A stretch of DNA of 54,668 nucleotides from a virus, in the IMG/VR virus record IMGVR_UViG_3300050026_000192, one strand, 5' to 3'. Both the position numbers and the translations under genes were made by a program. The notes beneath the pieces were generated by a model. The model saw only the letters and a program-made list of their open reading frames with translations. It searched no databases and was not told where the DNA came from. Positions 10,642-41,339 of the stretch are shown here, in pieces (the stretch's first letter is position 1; each line of letters starts with the position of its first letter).

Positions 10642-10749
10642 GTTGCAATCTTGAGAATGTACAACACACGGCGCGAAATCGCGGACGACGCCACACCCCG
10701 CCGCCGAAGCGGCGAGGGCTAGGATGATGGCGAGCGCAAACATTTTCAT
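10642..10749 (-). CDS. small lipoprotein (35 aa), o-spanin-like
   Basis: Hand translation gives MKMFALAIILALAASAAGCGVVRDFAPCVVHSQDCN. Lipobox AAGC; GAGG RBS. Confidence 0.5.
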
Positions 10750-10757
10750 TTTGTACC

Positions 10758-11069
10758 TCACGCTGCCTTACCGGTTTGGCGGTCCGCTTCCGCATTTACG
10801 CGCCTGACTTCGCTTAAAAATTGCAGCATAAACTCATCAGCGTGAACACCGCTTTTATCTGGAACGTATCCAAATGGGATTTGGTGGCGATCAAGCCACG
10901 TCTCGCGGTTTAACTCGTACCACTGACGCACATAGTCGGCGATATCGTCACCCCGCGAAGTAGGGTCGCTACTGAACCGCATATCTGCGATGCAGACGCC
11001 CTCGCCCCAATAGCCCTCGCAGTACATGAGATGGCACTTCGGGCAGAACGTCTGATCCTTTTCACGCAT
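10758..11069 (-). CDS. hypothetical Cys-containing protein (103 aa)
   Basis: Internal ATG (MREKDQTFCPKCH...) of track ORF 10758..11117, just after the upstream stop. Confidence 0.55.
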   Translation of the reverse strand: MREKDQTFCPKCHLMYCEGYWGEGVCIADMRFSSDPTSRGDDIADYVRQWYELNRETWLDRHQIPFGYVPDKSGVHADEFMLQFLSEVRRVNAEADRQTGKAA

Positions 11070-11070
11070 C

Positions 11071-11370
11071 TCAGGGCGCCAACGGAGCTTCGCCGGCCGC
11101 AACCGCAGCGGCTTCAAAGGCGTCGTCGCATTGCTTGTCGAGTGTCGCGAGCGTTGCCATCTGTGCGGTTGTCGTCGCCGGGTTGGCGCTCAGCGCGGCG
11201 ATGACGTTCTTGATTGGCGCAATCAGATCCTCGGCTTCATGCACCACAACCGGGATAATCTGGACGAGCGCATTGATGACGGCGACGACCATGCTGGCCG
11301 CCGAGGTCGAGAGGACCGGGAGAAGCTGCGTCAGCAAAGCGACGACAGCGGCGGCGATAGAGGACATCAT
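11071..11370 (-). CDS. membrane protein (99 aa)
   Basis: Internal ATG (MMSSIAAAVVALLTQLLPVL...) of track ORF 11071..11436; hydrophobic N-terminal half. Confidence 0.55.
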   Translation of the reverse strand: MMSSIAAAVVALLTQLLPVLSTSAASMVVAVINALVQIIPVVVHEAEDLIAPIKNVIAALSANPATTTAQMATLATLDKQCDDAFEAAAVAAGEAPLAP

Positions 11371-11395
11371 GGGGGCATTCCTTGTGTTTGAGAAA

Positions 11396-11770
11396 TCACT
11401 TGACGTTGTATTGGGCGAGCGCCGATTCCAGTGCATTGATCGCCGTTATGGCCGTGTTGTAGAGGCTCACGGGGGCGGGTGATCCTGGATTGGCGTTTAC
11501 GTAGGCTTCCATTTGGCTGCGGGCAGTGCGAGCCGCGCGAACCGCCGGAACGATTGCCTTGGTCGCCGCGGCTGTGCGGCAGAGCGTTGCCGCAGGGCAG
11601 AGAGGCAGTCGGATATAGTTAGTCGCGGTTGCCTCGATGGCGTCGAACGAATTTCCAGCGACGATGACCTGAGTCGGCGATACCGTCGTTCCTTCTAGGG
11701 TTGAGACATACGCGCATCCGGAGAAGCCGAGCGCGCCGACGATGACGAGAGATGCGAGTTTGAGTTTCAT
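11396..11770 (-). CDS. lipoprotein (124 aa)
   Basis: MKLKLASLVIVGALGFSGC carries a lipobox. Its ATG overlaps the upstream TGA. Confidence 0.65.
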   Translation of the reverse strand: MKLKLASLVIVGALGFSGCAYVSTLEGTTVSPTQVIVAGNSFDAIEATATNYIRLPLCPAATLCRTAAATKAIVPAVRAARTARSQMEAYVNANPGSPAPVSLYNTAITAINALESALAQYNVK

Positions 11771-11895
11771 GGACGTTTTCCTGTCAGTTTGAGCCAGATT
11801 GAATATGGGACGCCCCACGCCACGATGAGAAAGATCACATACAGCAACGCAAGAACCCCAATCACCATGAGCGGGATGCTTAGCCAATGTGACAT
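11767..11895 (-). CDS. small membrane protein (42 aa)
   Basis: Hand translation gives MSHWLSIPLMVIGVLALLYVIFLIVAWGVPYSIWLKLTGKRP. TAATG and ATGA overlaps. Confidence 0.45.
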   Translation of the reverse strand: MSHWLSIPLMVIGVLALLYVIFLIVAWGVPYSIWLKLTGKRP

Positions 11896-12239
11896 TATTT
11901 TGCCGCCGGCGGGATGATCGGGGCGTTGATTTGCGGAGACGGCGACGTTTCGGAGACGACCTTGACGCCGTTGGTCTTGTCATCGTTGACAGCGGCAATC
12001 TGCGACTTCCGACTCGCCGTCCACGCGGCATAAGCTCCCGTCGCTAGGGCAATCAGCGGCGCGAGCCCAGTGGCGATCTGCGCGACGCCATTGCCAATTT
12101 GCGTGACGGAGGTAGTGATTGTCGAGGCTTGGTCGCCACTGATGACATGCAGCGCGGCGACGGCGGCAGTTGCGCCCATGCTGAATGTCAGGGCATGTCG
12201 CCCCGCCGCGGCAAATTGAGCTTGGGTAGGCATGTTCAT
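11895..12239 (-). CDS. holin-like membrane protein (114 aa)
   Basis: ORF track. Two or three hydrophobic helices, located in the lysis cassette. Confidence 0.55.
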   Translation of the reverse strand: MNMPTQAQFAAAGRHALTFSMGATAAVAALHVISGDQASTITTSVTQIGNGVAQIATGLAPLIALATGAYAAWTASRKSQIAAVNDDKTNGVKVVSETSPSPQINAPIIPPAAK

Positions 12240-12258
12240 TTTCGTTTTCCCTCAGACG

Positions 12259-12423: not shown

Positions 12424-12433
12424 TGCAACTCTC

Positions 12434-13124: not shown

Positions 13125-13128
13125 GTTT

Positions 13129-13449
13129 TTAGCCGTCCTCGTTCCCGTATTCTCGGATATGAGCGAAGATTTTTGCTTCGGTCTCGTAATAGTCAACCGT
13201 CGCATTAATGTTGTTCTGCGCCGCTTGGCGTTCTCCATCGACATACGCCGCATCACGCATAGCGAGAAGCTGCGCATCGGTAAGCGTTAATCGATCTTCC
13301 CAACAAGCGAGATCAATCTTGCTTTTGGCAAGCCCCTTGTCGTAGGCGCTTGGCAAACCCAGTTTGACCAACCCATCATAAGCGCTCTGTTGAGGCGCTG
13401 GCGGCGCATAGACTAGGTTCATGTTGGTGGGCATCTCGGCATCAGTCAT
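13129..13449 (-). CDS. hypothetical protein (106 aa)
   Basis: ORF track. ATGA overlap with the amidase stop. Confidence 0.6.
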   Translation of the reverse strand: MTDAEMPTNMNLVYAPPAPQQSAYDGLVKLGLPSAYDKGLAKSKIDLACWEDRLTLTDAQLLAMRDAAYVDGERQAAQNNINATVDYYETEAKIFAHIREYGNEDG

Positions 13450-14126
13450 GGCGCAATACCCGCGGTCGCGTCGGCGGCGGCCTGTTCATCCGCGCATAGG
13501 CGAAGAGGTTCGGCGGGCGGCGTCCAGACCGGCGCGCCGCTCACGCTGGTCATCGCCGCCGCGCGCGCGAGGATCTTGCTCCACTGGAGCGCCCCTGGAT
13601 CCCAATGCGAGTCTGGCAACGGCACGTCGCCGTGGCCGTACCAGCCGCCGACGATGCCCCACTTGCCGGCGCTGCGGTGCGGGTTGTTCCCGTAGGCCCC
13701 GTAGTCGCCGTCCGCCCACGGGTGAGTGAGCGCGATCCCGTACTCGCGTTGGCAGACCGCCATCAGAGACGCAAGGGCATCCATCGTCTGATCGTCTGGG
13801 AGCCACGGCATCTGCTTTGAGAAGCCAATCATTTCAATTTGGATAATCGCTTGGTCGTTATGCGTGACCAACGCGGCGCCGATCGTCCCGACTTGGACAA
13901 GCTGCGCAATCCGAACCTTGTTCTGTGAATCGTCGAGCCCTAGCAGGAAGTGCGGTGCGTAGTGGGTCTTGAACACGGACAGACTGCTATTCCAGTTACC
14001 CTCGGTCGTGTGGAGAACGCCAGTGCGTGGGGTGATCAGATTGACGGGGATGCTGAAGTGAGGACAGGGGATTTGCTCGATGGTGAATTTCCCGGCCGTC
14101 TCTAGGAACGGCTTAACTTGGTTCAT
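13446..14126 (-). CDS. N-acetylmuramoyl-L-alanine amidase (Amidase_2-type endolysin)
   Basis: VLHTTEG and HGDVPLPDSHWDPG motifs. ATG 14126 follows GAGGATG; ATG 14207 is an in-frame alternative. Confidence 0.75.
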   Translation of the reverse strand: MNQVKPFLETAGKFTIEQIPCPHFSIPVNLITPRTGVLHTTEGNWNSSLSVFKTHYAPHFLLGLDDSQNKVRIAQLVQVGTIGAALVTHNDQAIIQIEMIGFSKQMPWLPDDQTMDALASLMAVCQREYGIALTHPWADGDYGAYGNNPHRSAGKWGIVGGWYGHGDVPLPDSHWDPGALQWSKILARAAAMTSVSGAPVWTPPAEPLRLCADEQAAADATAGIAP

Positions 14127-14203: not shown

Positions 14204-14812
14204 TCATGTCCTGACGAAGACCAGCGACCGGCGCGACACGATGGCGCGGCCGACGCGATGGCCCCAATTTCCACTGACAACCTCAACCCGGTCGCCGAGC
14301 GACGCGACGACAACGCCGACGTGATAGGCGCCACGGCGGCCCATGAACACGGCGAGATCGCCCGGTCGCCCGACACTACGCGGCCCGTAAGAGAGTGCCG
14401 CGCCAGCCATGCGGTTTGCCAGCGGCGGTCGGCCGGTTGCGCGAAGCCATGCAGAGGTTCCGTCAGCGCACCATGGCCCAGGATAAGGCGTGAACTTGCC
14501 TGAGCCGACATAGTGCGCCGCCTCGGCGACCAAGTCCGAGCCGGTTCGCCAGGTCGCCACACCAGCGCCCCACGCCGCCTGAACCGCGATCGTCGGCGCG
14601 CCATGCCGCCAGTCAGGGGCATATTGCCTCGGCGCCCACGCGAGCCTCATTCGGGTGTGACGGCTCGTTCGCGCTGCCGTCTGCTGATGCAAGACCGGCG
14701 CAGCGAAGGATTGGACTGCAGGGCCAGCTCGCCCGTTGGCCTCGGCGGGGGCGGTGAGGCAAAGACATATGAGAGCGGCGACGGCCGCCAGCGAGGCGCT
14801 GAGAAGCTTCAT
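14204..14812 (-). CDS. exported CHAP/NlpC-P60-like peptidoglycan hydrolase (TIGR02594-like)
   Basis: Signal-like MKLLSASLAAVAALICLCLTAPAEA, then PWCADG...RPGDLAVF...AYHVGVV...VSGNWG. Confidence 0.7.
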   Translation of the reverse strand: MKLLSASLAAVAALICLCLTAPAEANGRAGPAVQSFAAPVLHQQTAARTSRHTRMRLAWAPRQYAPDWRHGAPTIAVQAAWGAGVATWRTGSDLVAEAAHYVGSGKFTPYPGPWCADGTSAWLRATGRPPLANRMAGAALSYGPRSVGRPGDLAVFMGRRGAYHVGVVVASLGDRVEVVSGNWGHRVGRAIVSRRSLVFVRT

Positions 14813-14816: not shown

Positions 14817-15131
14817 CTAGAACTCCATGGGGGCAAAAAAACAATAGATAGAGGCGTCGGGACCATTGGCTTCGATCCAAAAGCCCCAGAACTGGCCGTC
14901 TTGGCTGGGCAGCACATGATCGGGAGGGACGACGGTGTTCATCCCTTGGATATGCCAGCCATCGTCTTGAAGGCTTACGGCGTCGAGCGAGAGCAGGTGT
15001 GCATCGGCCTGCCCGCAGCAAGCGTCTTTAACCCATGCCGGAACCGGAACGCCGTTCGCCCAGTAGTCGTGAGCCTGAGCGGGGCGACCAGCCGCGGCAA
15101 GTGCGAGGATGAGCGCAGCGAGGATTCTCAT
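14817..15131 (-). CDS. small exported Cys-containing protein (104 aa)
   Basis: Signal peptide MRILAALILALAAAGRPAQA. TGATG overlap upstream. Confidence 0.6.
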   Translation of the reverse strand: MRILAALILALAAAGRPAQAHDYWANGVPVPAWVKDACCGQADAHLLSLDAVSLQDDGWHIQGMNTVVPPDHVLPSQDGQFWGFWIEANGPDASIYCFFAPMEF

Positions 15132-16099
15132 CAATATGCCCTGCACAGGAAGCCGATCTTGTCGGCTGAGACCCAAGTCGCGGCGCCGGCGATGTCCGAA
15201 TAGTCCGTCACGGTGACGGAGCTGGCCGAGCTGGCGATTTGGAGCACCTGGAAATTCGCCGTGGTGTGCGTTGTGATGTCGTTGGCCGAGCAGATCCATC
15301 CCGTCGTCGCCGTCGGCATAGCGACCACGCAAGTCGAACCGCTGGCCGTGCCGATGGTGACGACGAAGGCGTCCGTTCCATTCGGCGCGCTGATGCTCGG
15401 CGAGCCGCCGCCGCAGCCGGAGGAAATCGTCGGCGCCGTCGCCGAATCGGCGAGATTGGCGAATTTTAGGGAAGAGGTGAAGATCGACGCCGCCGGCGTC
15501 CCGCCGCCGATCGTTCCGGGCGCTGAGAACGTTGCGCCGTTCAGCTGTGATGCGTTGACGCCGGTGATATTGGTCCCGACGCCGGCGGAGGGTGTCCCAA
15601 GCGCCCCGCCGTTGATCACAGGCGACCCGGCCGTTCCGACGTTGAGTTGCAGCGCGGTCTCGACGCCGGCCCCGGCAGGAAAATGCTGGCTGACCCCGGC
15701 CACGCCGGCTCCGCCATAGAGTTGCACGGTCGTCAGGTTTGGCAACGCCAGAATTAGCTTGGCGTTAACAAATCCGTCCGTGGCGATGGCGGTCGAAGTG
15801 TCGGATGTGGTTTGCGTGGTCGCCGTGGGCATTCCGGTCAATGCCGGAGAGCTGGCGAACACCAGCGACCCCGTCCCCGTCTCATCCGTTATCGCGGCGG
15901 CGAGATTGGCGGAGGTGGGGGTGAGAAGCCACGCGGGAACATTCGTTCCAAGCACAAACGGGCTTGGGATTGCCGAACCCCCGCCAAAGTTTGCGCATAC
16001 GGCACCGGGAAGGAAGACACCCGAGCAAGACGCCAGCGCCGGCCCCGCAAACAGACCAAAAAGCGCTAGGGAGCCAAAGAGACTGAGAAGCTTCCTCAT
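15131..16099 (-). CDS. fibre-like protein with a lipoprotein/Sec signal (322 aa)
   Basis: The N-terminus MRKLLSLFGSLALFGLFAGPALASC carries an LASC lipobox. The ITDETGTGSLVFASSPALTG motif is common in tail fibres. There are seven Cys. Confidence 0.65.
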   Translation of the reverse strand: MRKLLSLFGSLALFGLFAGPALASCSGVFLPGAVCANFGGGSAIPSPFVLGTNVPAWLLTPTSANLAAAITDETGTGSLVFASSPALTGMPTATTQTTSDTSTAIATDGFVNAKLILALPNLTTVQLYGGAGVAGVSQHFPAGAGVETALQLNVGTAGSPVINGGALGTPSAGVGTNITGVNASQLNGATFSAPGTIGGGTPAASIFTSSLKFANLADSATAPTISSGCGGGSPSISAPNGTDAFVVTIGTASGSTCVVAMPTATTGWICSANDITTHTTANFQVLQIASSASSVTVTDYSDIAGAATWVSADKIGFLCRAY

Positions 16100-17098: not shown

Positions 17099-18079
17099 TT
17101 ACATCTTGATATAGAATGTACCGAGAACAAATGGCGGCATGTTGTTGTGAGACCCGCCGCCAGCGTTGGTCGATAGTGTAATCCCGGTCCTAGCTGTTGC
17201 GGTTGAATTACGGAGTGTTTGCGGGGCCGATTCGCCAGTTGGGTAGGAGTAGGCAGAGGTATTATGCCAATTTGAACCAAATTGGGTTGAATCCGCAGGG
17301 GCGTGCGAGTGGCCTGGATCAGTGAGCGTATAAGTGAGTGCCACCGATTCTGCCGCCGTAAGCGTATGATTGGCCTCGCCGCCCCATGCCGCCGGGGTTG
17401 TCGGACCATCCCCGCCGCCGCTCGTGACATTGGACGCAAGCAGAATGCCCGCAGCAGACGCCCCCATGTCGTCGAGGCCGAGCGGCGCGCGCGCACGCCA
17501 GTCCGGCAACGCAATCGTCTTTCCAGCCGTGGAATCCGCCAGCGCCGTTGCTCCGCGCCCGCCAGATACCACACAATGAGCATTGCTGAAATTCTGCCAC
17601 AGATAGACGAACAGGCTCTGCGTATCCGCGTTGGCGCGCTGCGTCGCCCCGGATGTCGCATTGCCGATGGTCTGGCCGTTCATCTTCAGCCAGCCGGACA
17701 GCGTCTCCGAGGTGGCTCGGAACTTGATGTCGCCGGTCGAGAGGACGGTCGTCGGATCGACCGCCGAACCGCCACCACCGCCCCCGCCGCCAGACGATGG
17801 GCCGACAACTTGAAGCGTTGGGTAATCGAACAAAACCACGCCGTTAGAATCTGTTAAACGAACATGGACCTGTCCGTCAGCGAGGTACAGCATTGGAATT
17901 CTGCCGTACTGATCAGCTTGAACCGGCCAGGGATTCTTTATCGATAACCCAAAATCCTGAAATGAATCCTGCGGCGTGGCAACGGTTGACACGGCGTAGA
18001 TATACAACAGACATCCAGCGAGCGGCTGTCCGTTAAGATCAACCTGTTGGACGAGTGAGACGGGAATTGTCCCGGCCAT
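17099..18079 (-). CDS. tail fibre with a C-terminal phage tail-collar domain
   Basis: GWLKMNGQTIG...LFVYLW...TIALPDWRARAPLG...HTLTAAE...GGGSHNNMPPFVLGTFYIKM matches the Collar-domain (PF07484) pattern. Confidence 0.8.
   Translation of the reverse strand: MAGTIPVSLVQQVDLNGQPLAGCLLYIYAVSTVATPQDSFQDFGLSIKNPWPVQADQYGRIPMLYLADGQVHVRLTDSNGVVLFDYPTLQVVGPSSGGGGGGGGSAVDPTTVLSTGDIKFRATSETLSGWLKMNGQTIGNATSGATQRANADTQSLFVYLWQNFSNAHCVVSGGRGATALADSTAGKTIALPDWRARAPLGLDDMGASAAGILLASNVTSGGGDGPTTPAAWGGEANHTLTAAESVALTYTLTDPGHSHAPADSTQFGSNWHNTSAYSYPTGESAPQTLRNSTATARTGITLSTNAGGGSHNNMPPFVLGTFYIKM
17377..17407. repeat. 31-bp perfect direct repeat, copy 2
   Basis: Identical to 9955..9985. Confidence 0.9.
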
Positions 18080-18597
18080 TATGCCGCCCTCGCGAATTCA
18101 CCAAAATAACGCTCGGCCGCAGAGAAATAAGCAGAGTGAGCGTCTTTCGGATCGTCAAAGTAACCAAGGAATATCAGCCTATTGTTTACTTTTATTCTTG
18201 CCATCCATCTCTGATCGCGTTTGTACCAAATCACGCCCTTAAGTCCGCTCCTGCTTATTTTTATTCTTGGACGATTGGCGGCATTCTGCTGATCTGTCGC
18301 CGCACGGAGGTTGCCCCATTTATTATTGTCTCTATTCAAGTTACGATGATCCGTGTCGTGCTCTGGCCACTCACCATTCATGTACAGCATGGCGAGACGG
18401 TGAGCGTAGTAGCTCACTCCCTCAATCGTGATAATTCGATAGCCATCCGGCCCGACAACGCCCGCCACATCTCCCGCTCGAACGCGAGAACGAGGGCTAG
18501 GCCGAACGCGCCACGTAAACACACCCGTCTCCGGGTCGTAGGAAGGAACCTCGCGCAACCGGTCGGCGGTCAGCGCAATGGGTTTGGCGTCGGCCAT
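18079..18597 (-). CDS. HNH homing endonuclease with AP2-type DNA-binding domain
   Basis: YAHRLAM...DTDHRNLNRDNNKWGNLRAAT (HNH_3-like) plus GVIWYKRDQRWMARIKVNNRLIFLGYFDDPKDAHSAY (AP2-like). AT-richer DNA. Confidence 0.75.
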   Translation of the reverse strand: MADAKPIALTADRLREVPSYDPETGVFTWRVRPSPRSRVRAGDVAGVVGPDGYRIITIEGVSYYAHRLAMLYMNGEWPEHDTDHRNLNRDNNKWGNLRAATDQQNAANRPRIKISRSGLKGVIWYKRDQRWMARIKVNNRLIFLGYFDDPKDAHSAYFSAAERYFGEFARAA

Positions 18598-18851: not shown

Positions 18852-20854
18852 GGCGAAATCCAGACTTCCCCCTTATCCGGCAGCGCTGACGCCGTGCCGC
18901 GGACGCCAATTGCGCCTATGGCGGCTGCGGGCTGCCTGATTGCGCTCATCAGAGACTTATTGCTGGAGATCATCCGCAGGGCTTTGGCGTATTCGCTACC
19001 ATCCCCAGACGTGAGCATTTGGCCAATCTTGGCCGCGACGCGCTCGTCAATCCCTCGTCCCAATTTTTCGCCGGCCTTGGTGAGGAAGTCTTCCACCATC
19101 CCGCTTAGGCTCAATCGCATTTTCGGAATGACTGACCCTTCGGCCATGTCCCCGAGTTGACGTGCGGTCGTCGAGTTGCCCATGGCGGTCCTGAACCTAT
19201 CCATCATGGATTCGACGCGCAGATAGGCGTCAAGACGGTTGTATTTCTCAGGCCCCAAGATGGTGAGCATCCGCTCCTTGGCCTTCGGGGTATTGTTGAT
19301 CGACGTGAGAATGTTTTGGCTGTCCGGCTTGCCGAGAAGCGTCTGCGCCATTTGGTCTACCGTGCCTTCCCTGAACAGCTTTCGTTCGCCGGGGGTCAGT
19401 TTGCTCAGCGCGTCGCGAAGAACGCGGTTGTCGGCGCGAGACGCGACAGTACCGGGCATGACGGCGTCGCGCCCGGCCTGTAGGGCGTCTTTCGCTCCGA
19501 AGAACTGCGCGGCGCCCTTGCGCGCCTCGGCATAGCTCGGATGAAGGTCGTCAACCTGCTGGCGAAGAATACGCGACCAATCCTGCGCTTCTCGCGTTCC
19601 CGTCTTGTCAAGGGCGCGTTTCACGATGTCCCAAAACTGGCCGCTCGGGAGCATTCGATTGCCGTTCTCATCGGTCTTGAGCGTATATCTCCCGCGCGCG
19701 TCCTCGGCGAACGGAATTTTTGGCGGCGTGAGGCCCATCTTCGCCGCCTCGTTCTTAGCCGAGACCATCGCCTTGCGGATTGCATCTTGAACAACCGGCG
19801 CCTGAGAGATTTGCTCAAACCCCTCGTTCCACACGCCGTTGGCGCTATCGGAATAGAACTTGGCATAGGCGGGTCGGTTCACGCGCTTCGCGGATTCGGT
19901 CAGCGCCTTGTCAAGTTCGTGTGCGTCGCCAAATTCCGACATGCCTTGGACGAATTCGGCCGTTCGACTGTTCTGTTCTCTGAAACGACCGAAGATCGTG
20001 TTGTCAAACGCCTCTTGCGCTTCTGGCGAGACATTGGAGGCGCGGCGGGCGAGGCGTTGCGTTGCCCTCGACCCGCCCTGATCCATCAGAGCGATGGGCT
20101 GGCCGCGAGACTGGGCGTCTGCAATTTCTTGCGTGCTGAGGCCTTTCCCGGTGTCTTTCCCAAATGCTTTGGAAATCTGGAGCGCGGCCTCGCCGCCCGG
20201 ATCAATAGCCGCCTTACCCGCGCGCAACCACGGCGACGCCAGCTTGCCGATTCCAGCGCCGATTACTGGCCCGGCCAGGCCGGCGCCAGCGCCAACCGCG
20301 CCGCCAACCAACGGGTCGCCACCGCGCGCCGCAGAATCAAGCGCTCCGATCGTCCCACCACTGACGGCGCCCGCCCCCATCATGCCAGGCAACGTCTTGG
20401 CGGTTAGGCCAAGCAACTTTGCCCCCGCGCCGGTCAGACCAGCCGCGCCGAGTGACGCGATGCTTCCGGTCGCTTCCGCGACAGGCTCGGCGACGGGGTG
20501 CTCTTTAGCAAAGGACTGGTCCATCCCCTCTTGGATGCCCAGCGCCTTGCCGTAACGCTCGCCGAACGTCGGCGCGTTGATGCGTTGGCCTGGCTGACCA
20601 ACGCCGAGCGTATCCAGAAGCGGCTCGACGTACGGCGCCGCAGCGGCTTCCGTTGCGGCCTCAGCCTTATTAACCAGACCGCCGAGGATAGGCACGCCTT
20701 CGGCAAACGACCGCCCAAGGCCCGTCGTCATGCTCGGCGCCGCCTGCTGCTTCGGTCCGACGTGCTGCTGCAACGCCGTCGAGGCCGATTGAATATCCGG
20801 CGCGTCGACCTGGAACTTTCGGCCGTCTGGCGTCTGGACGTCAAAGACGGGCAT
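18848..20854 (-). CDS. internal virion / ejection protein (668 aa)
   Basis: ORF track. Gly/Ala-rich membrane-like segment (GAGAVSGGTIGALD...GAGAGLAGPVIGAGIG). Position in the ejection-protein block. Confidence 0.6.
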   Translation of the reverse strand: MPVFDVQTPDGRKFQVDAPDIQSASTALQQHVGPKQQAAPSMTTGLGRSFAEGVPILGGLVNKAEAATEAAAAPYVEPLLDTLGVGQPGQRINAPTFGERYGKALGIQEGMDQSFAKEHPVAEPVAEATGSIASLGAAGLTGAGAKLLGLTAKTLPGMMGAGAVSGGTIGALDSAARGGDPLVGGAVGAGAGLAGPVIGAGIGKLASPWLRAGKAAIDPGGEAALQISKAFGKDTGKGLSTQEIADAQSRGQPIALMDQGGSRATQRLARRASNVSPEAQEAFDNTIFGRFREQNSRTAEFVQGMSEFGDAHELDKALTESAKRVNRPAYAKFYSDSANGVWNEGFEQISQAPVVQDAIRKAMVSAKNEAAKMGLTPPKIPFAEDARGRYTLKTDENGNRMLPSGQFWDIVKRALDKTGTREAQDWSRILRQQVDDLHPSYAEARKGAAQFFGAKDALQAGRDAVMPGTVASRADNRVLRDALSKLTPGERKLFREGTVDQMAQTLLGKPDSQNILTSINNTPKAKERMLTILGPEKYNRLDAYLRVESMMDRFRTAMGNSTTARQLGDMAEGSVIPKMRLSLSGMVEDFLTKAGEKLGRGIDERVAAKIGQMLTSGDGSEYAKALRMISSNKSLMSAIRQPAAAIGAIGVRGTASALPDKGEVWISP

Positions 20855-32091: not shown

Positions 32092-32867
32092 GGCCCGATG
32101 TTTGCCGTGTTGATTGGGACGAAGCCGATGTTGTCGTTGGCGTAGGTGCCGGTGAACGAGTAGTCGTGCGCCGCCGCGTTGGTAAACTGCGGACTGCCGA
32201 AGAATGGCGCAGTGTCCGTGACCGTGAACGTGGAACCAGCCAGCATGTTGGGATTGGTGAATGCCGTACCGGATGCGGCGTAATAGATGTTCTTTGAGAC
32301 AATTGGTGGCGCGGTTACATATGCACTGGAAGTCTGCCACACCGGCACAGGCTGACTGTTGTTACCGGAATATATGATGTTATCCATTATGTTGTTATAG
32401 TTCATACCAAAATTTGTGCCAGAATTACCAGATACATCTTGATATAGGAACGCTACAGTCGGGTTGGCCCCAATAGCTGCAAAGTTCGTTGTGTCGCAGA
32501 TGTTATTCTTAAATAAATCGTGATCTCCGCCATGAATTATCCAGCAAAACTGATTTGTCCCGTATATGATATTGTTTACCAGCGTCACAAATGACGTGTT
32601 GTTGTCGAGATAAATTCCCTTGCCCAAGCAGTTATAGACAATGTTATTTGTAATCCCGACGCCTAGATTAACGTGGTTATCAGTATTGTAGATACACCCA
32701 GAATCACCTAAGGGGGCCTGGTTTGTGTCGTGTACTATGTTGCTGTCCACTAACACATTAGAGCCGGCAAGCGGGGTGACGGTCTCGAGAACTGCAATGC
32801 CAGGCGCAGCGGCATTGGAAGTCCGAGCGCTGGCTGCGCATGGTCGAGAACGACGCCATGCGTCCAT
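32088..32867 (-). CDS. right-handed beta-helix (pectate-lyase-fold) protein, apparently N-terminally truncated or chimeric
   Basis: Repeats NNIVYNCLGKGIYLDNNTS / VNNIIYGTNQ / KNNICDTTN in low-GC DNA. The first about 20 codons are the antisense of a portal-gene fragment. ATG 32960 is the alternative start. Confidence 0.6.
   Translation of the reverse strand: MDAWRRSRPCAASARTSNAAAPGIAVLETVTPLAGSNVLVDSNIVHDTNQAPLGDSGCIYNTDNHVNLGVGITNNIVYNCLGKGIYLDNNTSFVTLVNNIIYGTNQFCWIIHGGDHDLFKNNICDTTNFAAIGANPTVAFLYQDVSGNSGTNFGMNYNNIMDNIIYSGNNSQPVPVWQTSSAYVTAPPIVSKNIYYAASGTAFTNPNMLAGSTFTVTDTAPFFGSPQFTNAAAHDYSFTGTYANDNIGFVPINTANIGP
32803..32856. repeat. 54-bp perfect inverted repeat, left copy (portal-gene fragment)
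   Basis: It is the reverse complement of 35930..35983, checked base by base. Confidence 0.9.
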
Positions 32868-32907
32868 GCACCGAGACACAGTGCAGGGAGTATCAGTCCA
32901 ATGCGTT

Positions 32908-33546
32908 TCAACGAAGGTCGAGCCCCCAAACATCAAGAGTCGACGACCCATCGCCAGCATATGAGTTTGTACTCGGAGGAGACAACATTTTAACCCGCAT
33001 ATAGTAGGCTGACGATACTACGCCTATCGCACTAGTCGAAATCTTGCACCACGACCCAACCACTGTGGCTGAACTGGTAATGCTACTAAATCCATTCAAC
33101 CCGTATGATCCAGTGAGAGCTGTGCAATCCGACAAACTAAAGTTCCAGAAGAAATAATATGTGAAACTATTATCATATGTCTGAATAGTTATGTTTCTAG
33201 CGCCAACCCCATATTTTGCATATACCGATGTCGTATAAGTTGTTGCCGTGAAACTGTGCGTTACAGCAAATTGACTTTGATGATCTCCCGTATTGCTATT
33301 TTCGGCAATTGTGGAAGCGTCTACGGTGCAATCTGGCGAAGTAACTTGGTTGATTGCTACCGATGCGTTGATCGTTGAGCCGCCCGCAAGCGTCGCATTG
33401 TCATAAATTCCGCCTGTTGGGGCGGAAATCGGGGTGCAAGATGCCCCGAGGACAGCTAAGCCAGCGCCCGTCAACGGTACTTGCGCCGAGGCCGCGCCAA
33501 ACCACAGCGAGGCGATTAGGAGTGAGAGAGCGGCAATTCGGCGCAT
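32908..33546 (-). CDS. exported Cys-containing protein, lectin/CBM-like (212 aa)
   Basis: Signal peptide MRRIAALSLLIASLWFGAASA. Four Cys; C-terminal ...YAGDGSSTLDVWGLDLR. Low-GC DNA. Confidence 0.65.
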   Translation of the reverse strand: MRRIAALSLLIASLWFGAASAQVPLTGAGLAVLGASCTPISAPTGGIYDNATLAGGSTINASVAINQVTSPDCTVDASTIAENSNTGDHQSQFAVTHSFTATTYTTSVYAKYGVGARNITIQTYDNSFTYYFFWNFSLSDCTALTGSYGLNGFSSITSSATVVGSWCKISTSAIGVVSSAYYMRVKMLSPPSTNSYAGDGSSTLDVWGLDLR

Positions 33547-33547
33547 G

Positions 33548-35392
33548 TCAGTACTGATCGTAATAGACGGTTACGTCAGCGCCGCTTGTCGTGCTGCCAT
33601 GAAGACATAGCTGAGAACTAGCCGCTGTATGCAGACCGCGATAGAATGCGTTCGATCCGGCCCTACCAGCGTTCGCCACCCCGAACCATGTTTGCGTAAG
33701 CTGCGTCAGCGTCGCGCAGGTGCCGCTTGTCGCCTGTTCTAGATATACGTTGACGGTCCCGCTAAATGATATGTCATAATCGCAGACATAGATTGACGTG
33801 GTACCACTTACGTTGACAATTTGCGTGTCTGCCGCCGCCAGGGTCGCGTGGGCTGTAGACCCGCAAATGTGAGGTGTTGCCGCAGAATTGCCGGTCGAGA
33901 CTTGAGCCGTAACAGTGCCGCTAACCGGGATGGCCTGCCCACTGGTGACGCCCTGCACAGTCACAATCGCACCGGTCGGGGAACCCGCTGTCGCCGTACC
34001 GGGATTGAGACCAACGACCAAAGTCTTGTCGGCCGCCACCGGCAGCGTCGAAGCCGCCTTGACCGTCGCGACATTCGTCCCGGCCGAGTCAATGATGCCA
34101 ACGCCGCCGATCGAGACGGTCGGGGCTTGGGTGGGGATGGCTCCTTTGATGTCGGCATCAATCTGCTTGAGGCACGGATTGACGCCAGTCCCACTGCCAC
34201 AACCGGCGGCTGCCGTTGTGGTTTGGACACCGAGGTCCCATCCGTCAACGCCCGCGCCAGTGGCGAGAGATCCGGCTGCAAAAGCGCCGGACGCGACTTG
34301 CGCCGATGCCAGACTGGCCGGCTGCGTCGTCTGATAGAACGTCCCCGTCACAGCACGCGAGGCGGGGGCTTGTTCCTTGGCGCTGATTTCTTTCAGCACC
34401 TGCATCACCGTAACCGGCGTCGTGTCCGTTGCCGTTGAAGCAGCATCTGCTTTAGCGCCGAGCGTGACCTCAGCGCCGTCGCTGATCGCGCCGGAAGCGA
34501 AGGCGCCAGAGGCATAAGCCCCCGAGGCCACCGACCCGCTGGCAAACGCACCAGAAGCAACCTGCGCCGACGCGAGGCTCACTGGCTGCGTTGTTTGCCA
34601 GAAGGTGCCCGTGATAGAGCCACTAATCACCCAGGGCGAAGTGCCTTGATTGACTTCGCCAATGACCTTTGACGTTTCGGCATTCAGCACAGTTCGGAGA
34701 TTGCCGCCTGTGTCGGTCGAGAGCGGGTTGCTCTTCGCTGTCGTGTATGTCGGCGCGCTGGTCGTCGTCGCCGTCAACGGCAGGTTGCCGACTTCACCCG
34801 CGGTCGTGCTGTTTTGGGCCAACGCCAAATCGGCGATAGCGCCAGAAACAAACGCCCCGGAGATAGCCGTGACCGCGCCGCCGCCGCTACCGCCGCCGCC
34901 GGACCCGCCACCCGAACCTGTCGGGATACCAGAACCGCCGACCATGTTGACGGTCGTCGTCGAGGTCGAAGTGATACAGGTTAGCTGCGTCGCCACGCCG
35001 ACCGTGAAGGCGAACCAGCCGCCAGGGGGGATCGGCTGCTGGGCCGTGGTCGAGGACGCGCCAAGAGCGCAATACGCCGTGTTGGTCGCGCCGGCATTCG
35101 ATGCGACGACGACCGTACCGGCGGGAAGAGTGCCCGTAACGCCGCCCGTGGTGACGCTGATCGGTGTGCCCACAGAGGCGGGCGCGAAACCGCTAATCGA
35201 CGCCGTGACGCTGGCGCTGACCGGCAGTGGCGTGGCGGCAGTACAGGGAACCGCTTGGCCAGACACATCAAGGAACATGCAGACCTTGCCGTCCGCCCAA
35301 CCACCACCAGGCGACGGCCAACTGACTTGGGCAATAGCGTTCGCCCCGCCAAGCCATAACAGCGCGGCGGCTAGAGCAAGGATTCTCTTCAT
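33548..35392 (-). CDS. exported fibre-like repeat protein (614 aa)
   Basis: Signal peptide MKRILALAAALLWLGGANA. Internal duplication GTF(W/Y)QTTQP(V/A)SLASAQVASGAFA; Gly-rich linker; Cys-rich C-terminal domain. Confidence 0.7.
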   Translation of the reverse strand: MKRILALAAALLWLGGANAIAQVSWPSPGGGWADGKVCMFLDVSGQAVPCTAATPLPVSASVTASISGFAPASVGTPISVTTGGVTGTLPAGTVVVASNAGATNTAYCALGASSTTAQQPIPPGGWFAFTVGVATQLTCITSTSTTTVNMVGGSGIPTGSGGGSGGGGSGGGAVTAISGAFVSGAIADLALAQNSTTAGEVGNLPLTATTTSAPTYTTAKSNPLSTDTGGNLRTVLNAETSKVIGEVNQGTSPWVISGSITGTFWQTTQPVSLASAQVASGAFASGSVASGAYASGAFASGAISDGAEVTLGAKADAASTATDTTPVTVMQVLKEISAKEQAPASRAVTGTFYQTTQPASLASAQVASGAFAAGSLATGAGVDGWDLGVQTTTAAAGCGSGTGVNPCLKQIDADIKGAIPTQAPTVSIGGVGIIDSAGTNVATVKAASTLPVAADKTLVVGLNPGTATAGSPTGAIVTVQGVTSGQAIPVSGTVTAQVSTGNSAATPHICGSTAHATLAAADTQIVNVSGTTSIYVCDYDISFSGTVNVYLEQATSGTCATLTQLTQTWFGVANAGRAGSNAFYRGLHTAASSQLCLHGSTTSGADVTVYYDQY

Positions 35393-35394: not shown

Positions 35395-37338
35395 TTACAT
35401 TCCCGGTATCGTAGGCGCTACGGGCTGGGCGCCTTGGGGATTGGGTTGCTGCAGCTGGGGCTGAGGCGCGAGCAAGCCCATGGCCTCTTTCCAGAGTTGC
35501 GTCTGGAATGCGATGGCCTGCTGCTGCGTCTCATTGGCGGCTTGACCCGCCTCTACGCCAGCCTTCTGCGCCTGCGCATCGCTCTTGCGCGCGTCTGCCG
35601 CAGTCTTGGCGTTCTTCGCGGCGGCGCCCTCCATCTGGAGCTTTGCTGCCATGAGTTGCGGCGGTCCCGGAGGCTTCGGCGCCATCATTTGCAGGATCTT
35701 GTTCTTGATCTCACGCGGCCACGGCGCAATCTCGATCAGGACTTGCGGCGGGAATGTGCCGGGCGGGTAGCCCTTCAAGACATCAAACGCTTCCTGGCCA
35801 AGGCTGGCGCTGTCCGAGCCTTCCTCAAGGATGATATCAACGTCCAGCGCGCCAAGCGCATTGACCATAGCCGGACGGCCAAATTGATCTAGGCTCAACC
35901 CATTCAGTTGGATAAAAGCAGCCTTCTGCGCGTCGTTCTCGACCATGCGCAGCCAGCGCTCGGACTTCCAATGCCGCTGCGCCGTCGCCCAGATCGCGCG
36001 ATATATTTGCAGTTTCCATTGCCGGATCGCGAGGACGAATGGGCCGAGTTCCGCCATGCCTGGCTGGCGCAGCAGCTCGATCGCTCGGCCTGACAGATTG
36101 GTGAGACCAGGGCCAGAGATCGCGGCAACGTTCAAATTGGCAAACTGATCAATCTCGTCCTTGGCCTCTTGGCTCATCGAAGTGAACGCGGCAAAATCCT
36201 GCGTGCGATCCTCGGGGGTAACGTCAAACCCCTTGTTCTTTTCAATCACGCCGTCCGGCCGCGCCCATTGGATACGCGTTATCTCGACGTCGTCGACCGC
36301 GCCCTTGTCCATAATCAGCTTGCGCGAGTTCGCGATGTGCAGCGCCTTGGACTTCGACTGATTGAGTGAGTCCTGCGGTCCCTTGAGATTTCGGACGAAG
36401 CCGTAGCGGTCGCCGACGTGATCCACTGCAACAGAGAACATCTTGAATGAGGATATCGTCTTATTCTTTTCGTTAAAGAACGGAGAGATTCCCTCATCCA
36501 GCAACGTGTTGGCGACATAAAAAGCCCAGCACCACTTGCCGCGGCGCTTATACCAATGCTCAATCAGCCTGATACTGCGCGTCGCGGCGTTGACCCACTT
36601 GACCTCGCGATCAGGATTGGTGGTAAGATCGGCGTCACCCTGCGTGAGACCCTTAAGCTCTTCCTCTTTATCCGGGAACATCTGGATCGCTTCATCAACA
36701 TCGATCCATTTTGAGATGCCCTCGTACAGACCATCGGCGAAATCAAGACGATAGGAAGTCGGGTCATAGAAGTATTCATCGCCGACGACCCACGGCAGCG
36801 CGATGTCAGGATCGCCTTGATCGCCTTCGACCAACACCATTTGAACGCCGGCGACGCCATCGATGCATGATTGCAACAGGCACCATGGATCAATGCCCTT
36901 CCAATCGTTTTCGTCGAGGACGTAGCGGATGACTTGCGTCGCGATATCAGCGCCGGCCTCGCTCTTGATGTGTCTCGGGAGGGCCTTCGGGTCGGATCGA
37001 CCGCGCTCAACAAGCCCAACGATTGCATTAATCTTGCGCGCAATGCGATTGAAAGTTAGCTTCGGCTGATGGCGCTTGCGTAGGATTTTGATCTGGTCTG
37101 CGGTCCAGTGCGCGCCGTGATAATAGCGGCGGGCCTCTTTCTGCTCTTCGATCTCATCCGTCTTTGAATACAGGTAGTTGAGGTATTGCTCCTGCAACTT
37201 GCGGACGTCGAGAAATTGCGACTTGTCCTCGTCGCCGCCAGATAAGTCCGGCTTTCGACGCACGGCTTGAGCGCGCGGGTCAACGGTCTGCGACCGCGCG
37301 GCGCCCGACGCGAGCAACTGGCCGGCGATGTCAACCAC
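35395..37338 (-). CDS. portal protein
   Basis: 647 aa with a GTG start overlapping the upstream gene. EARRYYHGAHWTADQIKILRKRHQP is a portal-type N-terminal motif. Position between terminase and capsid. Confidence 0.75.
   Translation of the reverse strand: MVDIAGQLLASGAARSQTVDPRAQAVRRKPDLSGGDEDKSQFLDVRKLQEQYLNYLYSKTDEIEEQKEARRYYHGAHWTADQIKILRKRHQPKLTFNRIARKINAIVGLVERGRSDPKALPRHIKSEAGADIATQVIRYVLDENDWKGIDPWCLLQSCIDGVAGVQMVLVEGDQGDPDIALPWVVGDEYFYDPTSYRLDFADGLYEGISKWIDVDEAIQMFPDKEEELKGLTQGDADLTTNPDREVKWVNAATRSIRLIEHWYKRRGKWCWAFYVANTLLDEGISPFFNEKNKTISSFKMFSVAVDHVGDRYGFVRNLKGPQDSLNQSKSKALHIANSRKLIMDKGAVDDVEITRIQWARPDGVIEKNKGFDVTPEDRTQDFAAFTSMSQEAKDEIDQFANLNVAAISGPGLTNLSGRAIELLRQPGMAELGPFVLAIRQWKLQIYRAIWATAQRHWKSERWLRMVENDAQKAAFIQLNGLSLDQFGRPAMVNALGALDVDIILEEGSDSASLGQEAFDVLKGYPPGTFPPQVLIEIAPWPREIKNKILQMMAPKPPGPPQLMAAKLQMEGAAAKNAKTAADARKSDAQAQKAGVEAGQAANETQQQAIAFQTQLWKEAMGLLAPQPQLQQPNPQGAQPVAPTIPGM
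35930..35983. repeat. 54-bp perfect inverted repeat, right copy (inside the portal gene)
   Basis: Encodes AQRHWKSERWLRMVENDA of the portal protein. Partner at 32803..32856. Confidence 0.9.
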
Positions 37339-37627: not shown

Positions 37628-37629
37628 GG

Positions 37630-37854: not shown

Positions 37855-37857
37855 GGC

Positions 37858-39602: not shown

Positions 39603-39605
39603 TCG

Positions 39606-39884
39606 TCAGCCCTCCATCTTCTTCATTTGCTTGTCTGAGATCATGCCAGCGCGGGCTAGACGCTTGGCCTTGTGTCTGATGTGCTTGGGAAGCTTGCCGA
39701 TCTTGCGGCCAGCATCGGCTTTGACGAAGTCTTCGCCGACCGATTTCGGGGTTCCCTTGACCTTGCCTTCAGCGACGGCGTGAGCCCATCGGTTTTGGGC
39801 CTGCGAACTTGACGGCACTTCTCTCTCCACATTCTTGCCAAAAGCTACGGCCTTGTTGTTTTGCTGCGCTTCGGTGCCGGCCAA
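39606..39884 (-). CDS. DUF3008-like small basic protein (92 aa) with a C-terminal RAGMISDKQMKKM motif
   Basis: ORF track. SQAQNRWAHAVAEGKVKG ... RKIGKLPKH resembles DUF3008. Confidence 0.55.
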   Translation of the reverse strand: MAGTEAQQNNKAVAFGKNVEREVPSSSQAQNRWAHAVAEGKVKGTPKSVGEDFVKADAGRKIGKLPKHIRHKAKRLARAGMISDKQMKKMEG

Positions 39885-39888
39885 CTCT

Positions 39889-40092
39889 TCAGTCCTCTAG
39901 AATCGTCTGGACCGGCCGCCAATGACACTCGCCGGTGATACGCTCCCACATCTGCTCAAGGGCAATATCAGCATCGCCGCCGCCCTTTGGGCGATGCCAC
40001 CGCAGTTGAGGCGTCGGCTTCCATGCCCACGACTCGAACAAGAAAGCATCCATGTCGATGTCTGGATACTTATCTTGTGGCTGCTCATTCAT
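39889..40092 (-). CDS. hypothetical protein (67 aa)
   Basis: ORF track. Confidence 0.5.
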   Translation of the reverse strand: MNEQPQDKYPDIDMDAFLFESWAWKPTPQLRWHRPKGGGDADIALEQMWERITGECHWRPVQTILED

Positions 40093-40258
40093 TTAGTTCT
40101 TCGGCCTCGATAAACGCCGGCTCGCCCGGGTTTAGGTCTTCCTCATCGGCGTAGTCGCGCCAGTCATCCGGTTCGTCGGGTTCGTCCTCGGCGCCAACAG
40201 CCGCGCAATCCTCGTCGTCGGGATTGCCTTCGGGGATGTGGCGAATGAGGCCACGCAT
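40085..40258 (-). CDS. small acidic protein (57 aa)
   Basis: Internal ATG (MRGLIRHIPEGNPDDEDC...) of track ORF 40085..40399, 4 nt after the upstream stop. Weak RBS. Confidence 0.4.
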   Translation of the reverse strand: MRGLIRHIPEGNPDDEDCAAVGAEDEPDEPDDWRDYADEEDLNPGEPAFIEAEELNE

Positions 40259-40262
40259 CCGT

Positions 40263-40538
40263 TCAAGTGCCGACGTACGCGCTGATGTTGATACCCGCGC
40301 CGACAAACACCCTGGCCGGCGTGTCGTTCCACTGTACCGAGCCGGAGACTGAAACCGTGATGCTTTCATTGGCGGCAGGATCTCGCACGACGCCAACAAA
40401 CGCCGTGACGGCGTCTTCGGCCGCCTTTCGGTCGGCGACGTGCGGCGGCTGAGATGCGACGACTTTGTCGAACTCCGCTTTGACCAGCGCTGGCAGTTCG
40501 GCCTTGGTGGATGCCTTAACTGAGAATGAATAACTCAT
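40263..40538 (-). CDS. hypothetical protein (91 aa)
   Basis: ORF track. Confidence 0.55.
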   Translation of the reverse strand: MSYSFSVKASTKAELPALVKAEFDKVVASQPPHVADRKAAEDAVTAFVGVVRDPAANESITVSVSGSVQWNDTPARVFVGAGINISAYVGT

Positions 40539-40568
40539 TGGGGGTTCCTTTCACGGAAGAGACGCGCA

Positions 40569-41339
40569 TCACATTGCAGCGCTCACAGCATTGATTTGGC
40601 CGGTTGCCGCGCCAGCCGACGTCGTGACCAGCATGACGACCTCAATTGCGATGCGCTGGCCGGCGACAAGGCCCGCCGCGCCGGGAATGGTGAACGTGTA
40701 GTTCGTCGCTGTTCCGGTGAATTGCTGCGCTGCGGTAATGCCGGCAATCGCGGTCTCGACGCCGTTGACCTCGGTATAAGCCGCGAGCGTGAGTGTGGTC
40801 GTCGCGGCCGTGACGGTCCCAGTGCCGGTATAATTCGCGTTGACGACAACCGGAATGGCCTGTCCAGTCACGTAGCTGTCCGCGACGTTCAGCTCCCAGA
40901 GCGCCTTGTCAGTCTTGGCGCTGGCCGACGTGGCCTCGCCGACCAAGACAAGGCTTGTCCCTGCCGTGCGGGAAACGCCGACCGTGCCCGCGGGTGTGCC
41001 AGCCGCAGCGGTCATGGGAACGCCGAGATCGCTCTTGGCGTCGGTCAGCTTGAGGTTGCGCGCCAAGCCTCCCTGGGAGGTCGGGACAAAGGTTTCGGAT
41101 GTCGAGACCGGCTGGCCCATGCCGCCGTTGGCCCGGCCCTGATACAGCGTCGTGATATACAGCGTGCCGCCGGTGACCGCGACGCTCTGCGTCAACATTT
41201 CCGAGTTGTCGATAACCTGCGTCGAACTGGGGACCGGCGCCGGGGACTGGTCGAGCACGGTTGACGGCGTGACGGCAAACGCTGCCCCGCCCAGAGCAAG
41301 GACAGCGACCGCGGCCAGAAGCAAGCGATTGAGTTTCAT
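40569..41339 (-). CDS. exported Thr/Ala/Gly-rich protein (256 aa)
   Basis: Signal peptide MKLNRLLLAAVAVLALGGAAFA. ATGA overlap with the GNAT stop. Confidence 0.65.
   Translation of the reverse strand: MKLNRLLLAAVAVLALGGAAFAVTPSTVLDQSPAPVPSSTQVIDNSEMLTQSVAVTGGTLYITTLYQGRANGGMGQPVSTSETFVPTSQGGLARNLKLTDAKSDLGVPMTAAAGTPAGTVGVSRTAGTSLVLVGEATSASAKTDKALWELNVADSYVTGQAIPVVVNANYTGTGTVTAATTTLTLAAYTEVNGVETAIAGITAAQQFTGTATNYTFTIPGAAGLVAGQRIAIEVVMLVTTSAGAATGQINAVSAAM

Follow-up and report, generated by a model that had tools for sequence, protein, structure and literature searches.

Secretion signals on capsid cement and tailspike relatives of an uncultured podophage clade, and the hypothesis of an assembly step outside the cytoplasm

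Why would a tailed phage put secretion signals on proteins encoded amid its head and tail genes? To our knowledge, the virions of tailed phages are taken to assemble wholly in the cytoplasm. The question is raised by IMG/VR record IMGVR_UViG_3300050026_000192, a divergent podophage genome (54,668 nucleotides, that is, 54.7 kb; GC content ~58%), whose full length we call the window. An earlier note, made by a model from the letters of this DNA and a list of its open reading frames (ORFs), had pointed out ten ORFs with Sec or lipoprotein signals. It considered one exported lysin to be expected in a phage, and exported fibre-like proteins inside the structural modules not to be; we likewise judged such a lysin and the small lipoproteins to be ordinary, and the fibre-like proteins to be out of the ordinary. 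We found that two known structural families, the capsid cement protein and the tailspike, have variants with classical predicted secretion signals in hundreds of uncultured phages, that predicted cleavage of these signals recreates the N-terminus of the signal-less forms, and that a family of chimeric fibres is predicted to be exported as well. An extracytoplasmic assembly step is the hypothesis put forward here.

All ten ORFs were located at or beside the positions first reported (Table 1), with start codons picked to fit upstream stop codons and public gene calls. Signals were predicted with a rule-based caller which, on phage lambda, recovered Lom, Bor and Rz together with two false calls. 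Nine ORFs have textbook N-termini, with a basic n-region, a hydrophobic core and small residues at −3/−1 or a lipobox. In seven of them (sp256, sp614, sp212, sp184, lp322, sp105 and sp202), the basic n-region is followed by an h-region of ~7-15 residues, and the signal peptidase I (SPase I) sites read AFA, ANA, ASA, AYA, ALA, AQA and AEA, respectively. Cysteines in the mature parts across the set number 10, 4, 2, 6, 3, 1 and 0, and 1+2 each in the lipoproteins. The tenth, the early ORF sp94, may not be a gene: basic residues are missing from its n-region, its GC content is flat over the three codon positions (0.56/0.57/0.57), it is absent from the public gene calls, and it has no homologue in any related locus examined. 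Thus, the earlier count holds for nine ORFs. One could suppose that the signals as a whole reflect chance or annotation errors, with wrong starts or non-coding ORFs, as sp94 looks non-coding and the caller, besides its two false calls in lambda, is positive for ~2-5% in control loci. However, nine of the ten ORFs are matched by public gene calls for the same phage, which is seen on more than 20 contigs. Moreover, 8 of the ~48 late ORFs of at least 100 residues bear a signal, against a baseline of 4.9% in structural-module loci of related phages with a signal-less cement protein (binomial P = 0.002). Finally, the signal is kept in hundreds of homologues, a conservation that already largely refutes this explanation, which we consider extremely improbable.

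Homologues hold the pattern of n-, h- and c-regions despite sequence drift. Signals were found in 102 of 120 homologues of sp184, starts being mis-called in most of the remainder, and an alignment of 56 sequences of this family showed an invariant Ala at −1 and a variable h-region. Among the matches listed for sp614, 96 of 120 had a signal (more than 700 homologues were found). A phage binned with a Beijerinckiaceae metagenome-assembled genome (MAG) encodes a corresponding trio, namely a 337-residue fibre-like protein, a 141-residue protein and a 175-residue CHAP protein, in which signals are kept although their sequences differ. We then compared the parity of cysteine counts, even versus odd, in the predicted mature parts of signal-bearing and signal-less relatives. 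Even:odd ratios were 91:5 versus 9:8 in the sp614 family (P 4e-5), 18:0 versus 27:31 in the lp322 family (P 1.6e-5), 90:8 versus 28:40 in the sp184 family (P 1e-12) and 29:3 versus 12:14 in the tailspike family (P = 3e-4). Such a bias towards even counts, seen in four families and there only when a signal is present, is expected if disulfides form after export, in an oxidising compartment. By pattern conservation and cysteine parity, these N-termini look like functional Sec signals, and we infer that the proteins are exported and cleaved.

A different possibility was that the hydrophobic N-termini are uncleaved membrane anchors or assembly helices, so that the proteins would remain on the cytoplasmic face or bound to the inner membrane and join the particles there. 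Some uncharged stretches do approach the length of a transmembrane helix (~21 residues in sp184), and AlphaFold2 (AF2) models the segment as a helix. Against this stand the invariant Ala at −1 and the small residue at −3 next to an h-region that is free to vary, the even-cysteine bias found only in the signal-bearing members of four families, and the coincidence of the cut site with the start of signal-less orthologues, described below. We regard such anchoring as unlikely.

The clearest exported outer part encoded in the window is predicted to be sp184. Its gene lies directly downstream of that of the major capsid protein, and it is the sole copy of a cement-type homologue in the window. With the AF2 model (pLDDT 83.7), Foldseek ranked highest a capsid chain of Pam1 (7eel_H, E 1.3e-5), the cement protein of GP4 (8h89_J, 2e-3) and those of KHP30/KHP40 (7dn2_1, 9e-3), with probability 1.0 for each of these three chains. 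Gene order in Pam1 is the same, with portal, scaffold, major capsid protein, cement, adaptor and, further on, tail spike. The fold is common among phage proteins of 128-170 residues, including a 'structural protein' of phage KPP25. By model and gene order, we take sp184 to be a capsid cement homologue of the Pam1/GP4/KHP30 type. It shares the beta-sandwich fold with Pam1_06 (7eel), Ralstonia GP4 gp1 (8h89) and Helicobacter pylori KHP30/KHP40 (7dn2, 7dou), as well as the gene slot after the major capsid protein, the overall gene order and a conserved N-terminal arm. All of these belong to the same phage lineage, since the portal matches the same phages. In Pam1, the N-terminal arm of the cement protein contacts the E-loop of the capsid (PMC9698820). 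The solved cement proteins, however, are cytoplasmic, signal-less and 126-157 residues long, whereas sp184 and several hundred relatives have a predicted Sec signal of 23-34 residues and paired cysteines. Because of this signal, we call sp184 a signal-bearing variant and not a typical member of the cement family. A profile search of the Protein Data Bank (PDB) with sp184 gave nothing significant. Incidentally, the start of the sp184 family profile aligned weakly (E 0.6, not significant) with the start of the methane monooxygenase subunit PmoB (PDB 3rfr_A), which we take to be its cleaved signal peptide; in this alignment, the sp184-type signal looks ordinary for an alphaproteobacterial host.

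An exhaustive search showed that the cement family exists in two forms, a signal-less one of 130-145 residues and a signal-bearing one of 165-200 residues, with N-arm and core motifs common to both. The signal-less form is widespread and occurs in Firmicutes phages too; in the genome records examined, the signal-bearing form was found only in Hyphomicrobiales. When the two forms are aligned, the predicted mature N-terminus of the signal-bearing proteins (64 of 70) shares a column with Met1 of the signal-less ones (48 of 70), and the signal trait is clustered on the cement tree (5 parsimony changes among 140 tips). The codon that follows the signal, at +1, is CTC in 17 of 32 cases, which argues against an internal start for a cytoplasmic cement isoform; as +1 in the tailspikes is Ala or Gln, a cytoplasmic isoform made by internal initiation at the cut site was ruled out for both families. 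Among cultured phages, Rhizobium phage RHph_Y1_10 encodes a signal-less cement homologue. Signal-less members of the family also match PHROG 20969 (E down to 1.6e-9), labelled 'Rz-like spanin'. Since fold and gene position say cement, this label is probably an annotation error, which perhaps began with signal-bearing members that resemble membrane-anchored i-spanins.

The second structural family is that of the tailspike p326. Its N-terminus is a head-binding domain (phmmer matches to 9vyg, E 5e-4, and 7eeq_A, E 0.01), and hhalign matched p326 to the Pam1_17 tail spike with a probability of 97% (E 1e-10). Thus, p326 and its relatives share their head-binding domain with tailspikes of the P22/Pam1 type. 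In the window, p326 begins M/AGTIPVSLVQQ… and has no signal. Unlike the P22/Pam1 tailspikes, half of its relatives have a Sec signal directly before the head-binding domain (35 of 64 unique IMG/VR homologues). Of the 33 rule-called tailspikes, 31 have a predicted cut that would leave as first residue precisely the one next to Met1 of signal-less tailspikes, as in VQA/AGT, AFA/AGT and ASA/QGT, and other sites read VHA, AHS and AHG. The relatives have one head-binding domain per locus, and its conservation does not depend on the signal: mean identity was 0.56 in signal-bearing versus 0.51 in signal-less proteins, with the same consensus. Scored by genome, the signal was on both tailspike and cement in 13 cases, on the cement only in 5, on neither in 5 and on the tailspike only in 0 (P = 0.007), three apparent exceptions being truncated at the edge of a locus. 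Other late ORFs were predicted to be exported in 9.5% of cases in loci with a signal-bearing cement protein versus 2.0% in the others under a strict criterion (P = 5e-7); these co-occurrence P values ignore shared ancestry.

The two structural proteins that acquired signals are those that bind last, on the outside of the finished particle. Such terminal steps, namely addition of the P22 tailspike and binding of gpD, Dec and Soc in lambda, phage L and T4, work in vitro. Addition of the spike is the last step of P22 assembly and, as the in vitro tailing of heads shows, is possible outside the cell. Moreover, the lack of a signal on the Amidase_2 endolysin of the window implies a holin of the canonical, large-hole type. 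Taken together, these points make export followed by post-holin addition the most likely course. In such a scheme, the outer parts, that is, the cement, the tailspike of the relatives and the fibre-like proteins, would be exported by Sec, and would fold and become oxidised in the periplasm, while DNA-filled particles lacking spike or cement would build up in the cytoplasm. The holin would open the inner membrane, and the cytoplasmic and periplasmic pools would mix before the outer membrane fails. The last steps, addition of cement to expanded heads and docking of spikes and fibres, would follow this mixing. We favour this course of export, oxidative folding and post-holin addition, giving it close to an even chance. 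Somewhat more cautiously, we propose that a whole clade of temperate Hyphomicrobiales podophages (Bradyrhizobium, Pseudolabrys, Beijerinckiaceae) may complete its virions outside the cytoplasm with exported, disulfide-bonded cement, tailspike and accessory fibres or enzymes, which, before joining the particles, may act from the periplasm on the receptor polysaccharide of the cell itself. That the exported proteins are present in the virion is suggested by their single copy, matching mature N-termini and conserved docking domain. Of the three ideas in the earlier note, export-dependent assembly thus gains the most support, from evidence that it had not identified, that is, the signal-bearing cement homologue and the signal-bearing tailspikes of relatives.

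Filamentous phages offer a parallel. Like pIII and pVIII of Ff phages, the proteins described here would be virion proteins made with Sec signals and joining the particle outside the cytoplasm. Ff pIII has periplasmic disulfides, and Ff particles are extruded through the envelope without lysis. Unlike Ff, the phage of the window is a tailed podophage that packages DNA into an HK97-fold capsid and has a holin-endolysin cassette.

Several points weigh against assembly outside the cytoplasm, in addition to the shared ancestry behind the co-occurrence values. The tailspike and the Peptidase_S74 fibre of the window are signal-less, so that only the cement bears directly on assembly in this phage. 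It is by fold and gene order that sp184 is assigned to the cement proteins, and the profile of the signal-less family did not match Pam1_06 significantly by hhalign (probability 3%, E 0.013). About 400 exported cement copies per particle would be a heavy load for Sec, and heads would need to retain their packaged DNA without cement until lysis. In cultured phages, tblastn with sp184 and with a divergent signal-bearing cement protein returned no signal-bearing form. Full-text searches of open-access papers turned up no tailed phage whose cement, decoration or tailspike proteins are described as bearing signals, and none is known to us. Lastly, the cassette between portal and scaffold, with its variable, mobile and GC-atypical proteins, looks more like accessory cargo than like a set of core virion parts.

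This cassette comprises sp614, sp212 and p290 in the window. Sp614 consists of a signal, a conserved beta-rich N-domain of ~140 residues, a Gly-rich linker, fibre repeats (two, TQPVS/TQPAS, as the earlier note had seen) and a jelly-roll C-domain rich in cysteines, with 10 cysteines in the mature part. In its family, the N-domain is conserved right after the signal and the distal, C-terminal parts vary. AF2 was confident for the two end domains only, the middle 300 residues not being modelled, and fold matches were weak (E at least 0.015), to jelly-roll proteins, lectins like tumour necrosis factor (TNF), carbohydrate-binding modules and the KHP40 cement protein. Sequence searches of the PDB with sp614 and lp322 gave nothing meaningful, nor did tblastn with sp614 find anything in cultured phages. 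Sp212 (212 residues, 4 Cys, mature N-terminus QVPLTGAGL) is the partner of sp614 in this mobile cassette: a pair of sp614-like and sp212-like proteins, in which this N-terminal motif of the mature part is kept, occurs again in related loci L001, L028 and L029. Such a pair is also found on other podophage backbones, at other positions. The p290 ORF and the end of sp212 share 53 nt. A single gene split by a frameshift or a sequencing error into sp212 and p290 was ruled out, as more than 20 contigs from different samples were identical, a 471-residue protein of L001 does not align to the window, and p290 is called separately, with 290 or 259 residues but identical sequence in public assemblies.

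In close relatives, the occupants of the slot differ, being signal-bearing and rich in cysteines, and include GH5-like, SGNH-like and beta-helix enzymes. In L008, there are four signal-bearing proteins (410, 315, 524 and 587 residues), one of them GH5-like and another with a signal of Tat-like type (RRKIL); three are present in L001 (362, 471 and 569 residues); and a Bradyrhizobium betae prophage has a 143-residue protein and an SGNH-like one of 588 residues. In distant relatives the slot is empty, the portal being directly followed by the scaffold. GC content falls to 0.517 over 32001-34000, which covers sp212 and p290, versus 0.59-0.64 on the flanks, and this is consistent with recent acquisition of that part of the cassette. 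Two side observations concern the N-termini of cassette proteins. Short motifs right after the predicted cut are shared despite unrelated downstream domains, FWQS/FWHG in three proteins and QVPLTGAGL-like in four (at L008 13170-17564, L028 12112-13419, L001 6964-8379 and L029 11808-12752), and these could be docking peptides. The Tat-like signal in L008 (14111-15685) reads MLTRRKILLGG…AAA/W, so some cassette members may be exported already folded.

These features suit another reading, in which the exported proteins never become part of the particle, and structural modules have been duplicated or turned into periplasmic, surface or released factors. Such factors might mask or destroy the receptor polysaccharide, exclude superinfecting phages, prevent progeny from sticking to debris, or remodel the envelope and exopolysaccharide (EPS) for release, similar in function to T5 Llp, lambda Lom/Bor, Pantoea WceF and the MAT (mosaic adhesive trimer) fibres of Bdellovibrio. 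The hypervariable, enzyme-bearing slot is where this reading fits best, and the decoy or masking and envelope-remodelling ideas of the earlier note find their place there. The sp614-like/sp212-like pair moves among unrelated podophage backbones, GC content of the region is atypical, sp256 is dispensable among close relatives, and the window retains signal-less receptor-binding proteins of its own. In the MAT fibres, a signal peptide is combined with a conserved, beta-rich N-domain (~130 residues) and with tips that vary and are TNF-like in some cases (PMC10769870), and it is by this layout that we liken the sp614 family to them. In Pantoea stewartii, WceF is a Tat-exported enzyme with a tailspike fold that acts on EPS (PMC7949094). 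Both, however, are cellular genes, unlike the cassette genes, which lie inside a phage structural operon. Non-virion factors would also leave unexplained why the signal is on the only cement homologue and on the only tailspike of relatives, why cleavage would yield the same N-termini as in signal-less orthologues, and why the tail-docking domain is equally conserved. Furthermore, PHROG and Pfam searches with all signal-bearing candidates were essentially empty, and none showed homology to T5 Llp, the comparison made in the earlier note, or to any other known exclusion or masking protein. With Lom/Bor of lambda, Llp of T5 and Cor, the candidates do have in common a signal or lipobox and a location inside late operons; these known examples are small proteins of the envelope with no relation to virion parts. 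We see non-virion factors as the main rival account, somewhat less probable than addition to the particle, and the two readings can both hold, for different proteins.

Like sp614, lp322 is a fibre-like protein built from tail-fibre modules. It is composed of a signal, a tail-fibre module with the motif DETGTGSLVF (residues 72-81), which had been singled out as a fibre hallmark from the start, and a conserved C-domain rich in cysteines. The DETG[TS]G.LVF module is common, mostly in signal-less tail fibres, and 19 of 98 classifiable lp322 homologues had a signal, among 120 matches listed. The LASC motif at its N-terminus is real and fits the lipobox pattern [LVI][ASTVI][GAS]C. The site is ambiguous, but it is probably one for SPase I: if SPase I cleavage is assumed, the cysteine count is even in all 18 Cys-bearing relatives with a signal. 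The C-domain is 85% identical in the Beijerinckiaceae-MAG phage, where the protein is signal-bearing, and tblastn against cultured phages gave two short motif matches only. As to sp256, it has 0 Cys and is an accessory gene, found with 69% identity in L007, as a 41-residue signal-only remnant in L001, and absent from L008. We considered whether sp256 might be another decoration protein, akin to the product of the gene that follows the capsid gene in L011, and dropped this idea, as there was no significant similarity.

The remaining signal-bearing genes belong mainly to an ordinary lysis and envelope group formed by sp202, lp124, lp36 and small membrane proteins, beside the signal-less Amidase_2 endolysin. 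Sp202 is CHAP-like (Pfam CHAP 20.8 bits, under the cut-off of 26), and its orthologue in L015 (44% identity) has PF05257 and a signal; it is predicted to be a Sec-exported peptidoglycan peptidase of the CHAP/NlpC-P60 type. Lp124, called as a 124-residue gene, lies in the lysis region, and a 133-residue lipoprotein is found in the same region of a relative. Lp36, called as a 36-residue gene in L019, has a Cys pair and could be an o-spanin-like or entericidin-like protein. Both adjoin membrane and coiled-coil ORFs at 9504-12239 and have no family match. Their lipoboxes, FSG/C and AAG/C, have an unusual −3 residue by the pattern given above, and presumably fit the looser PROSITE-type pattern. An exported peptidase by the lysis genes together with small lipoproteins that may be spanins recalls phages with Sec-dependent or signal-anchor-release endolysins and spanins; what sets the phage of the window apart is that it encodes, in addition, an Amidase_2 endolysin without a signal and a Phage_lysozyme2 protein (profile match). 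The small predicted-exported protein sp105 has 3 Cys and is called as a 104-residue gene in six public contigs, and a signal-bearing gene with no detectable homology occupies its slot in a relative. In L028, a signal-bearing ORF of 250 residues (17160-17912) follows the lysis genes; its N-terminus looks to us like that of an alphaproteobacterial outer-membrane protein, in which case it would presumably be a classical 'moron' gene.

If true, the assembly step proposed here would be the first extracytoplasmic one described for a tailed phage. Should the exported forms reach the particles, the last step of assembly would be compartmentalised and tied to lysis, lysis timing would become part of morphogenesis, disulfides could stabilise phage surface proteins, and infectivity would depend on Sec and Dsb of the host. 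If they are decoys or enzymes instead, they would make up a large new class of phage envelope effectors built from virion modules. In practice, signal peptides serve as a filter against structural annotation, the cement family carries the label 'Rz-like spanin' in PHROG 20969, and cytoplasmic expression of such receptor-binding proteins may yield misfolded protein. The B. betae prophage (chromosome CP044543.1, about 332.9-353.4 kb) provides a cultured entry point that allows a direct experimental test; its predicted mature N-termini are LQVDQTR… for the cement protein and AGTIPLAL… for the tailspike.

Table 1. Features of the window; a slash marks the predicted cut.
Feature	Coordinates	Strand	Description	Basis
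sp256	40569-41339	-	predicted signal MKLNRLLLAAVAVLALGGAAFA/VTPS	sequence
sp614	33548-35392	-	predicted signal MKRILALAAALLWLGGANA/IAQV	sequence
sp212	32908-33546	-	predicted signal MRRIAALSLLIASLWFGAASA/QVPL	sequence
sp184	28598-29152	-	predicted 25-residue signal MFRNILKSAVLACALAAVTIGSAYA/LNVD (…GSAYA/LNVDQKR)	sequence
lp322	15131-16099	-	predicted …FAGPALA/SC or lipobox LAS/C	sequence
sp105	14817-15131	-	predicted signal MRILAALILALAAAGRPAQA/HDYW (…GRPAQA/HDYW)	sequence
sp202	14204-14812	-	predicted …CLCLTAPAEA/NGRA	sequence
lp124	11396-11770	-	predicted lipoprotein …GALGFSG/C	sequence
lp36	10639-10749	-	36 residues, predicted lipoprotein MKMFALAIILALAASAAG/C (…SAAG/C)	six-frame reading
sp94	5922-6206	+	signal-like early ORF, coding status doubtful	sequence
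p290	32088-32960	-	beta-helix-like, Cys-containing, no signal	weak Pfam Beta_helix match
p326 tailspike	17099-18079	-	326 residues, no signal here	PHROG 8763 'tail protein' E 9e-45
Major capsid protein	29221-30381	-		PHROG 334 E 1e-64, Pfam PF13252
P22-like portal	35395-37338	-	upstream boundary of variable cassette	PF16510 E 6e-89
Large terminase	42606-44102			profile match
Phage_stabilise/Hc3-like protein	24570-26834			profile match
Peptidase_S74 fibre	23475-24335		286 residues, no signal	profile match
Transglycosylase-bearing internal protein	20854-23172			profile match
Amidase_2 endolysin	13446-14126	-	no signal	Pfam PF01510 E 5.5e-8
Early genes	1-9400	+		gene layout
Late genes	54264 down to 9504	-		gene layout

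As regards the phage itself, which we take to infect a soil bacterium, it is present on more than 20 metagenome contigs. No cultured relative matched the window at the DNA level. At the protein level, Pseudanabaena phages had the best portal identity (32%), ahead of Ralstonia GP4-like, Bcep22-like and Helicobacter phages. Its relatives include the contig binned with the Beijerinckiaceae MAG and the prophage in the B. betae chromosome. Among ~40 ORFs screened against Pfam or PHROGs, no integrase was seen. The early region encodes a Rad52/22-family recombinase (2946-3710, + strand; PF04098 E 4e-37), and a DNA methylase and an SNF2/DEAD-like helicase are encoded within 47880-50323. The packaging and tail modules also harbour two HNH endonuclease genes (41884-42531 and 18079-18597, both on the − strand). 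Directly upstream of sp256 lies a GNAT acetyltransferase gene (41336-41887, − strand); the Pam1 tail genes likewise include an acetyltransferase. Finally, both ends of the window (1-120 and 54549-54668) lie within one 27-nt tandem repeat with units like GGCGCGGCCACGGCGAGCGGCTACAAC, which indicates that the assembly is circular or permuted and was broken within the repeat, and the last 111 bases of the window are found again in its first 2 kb.

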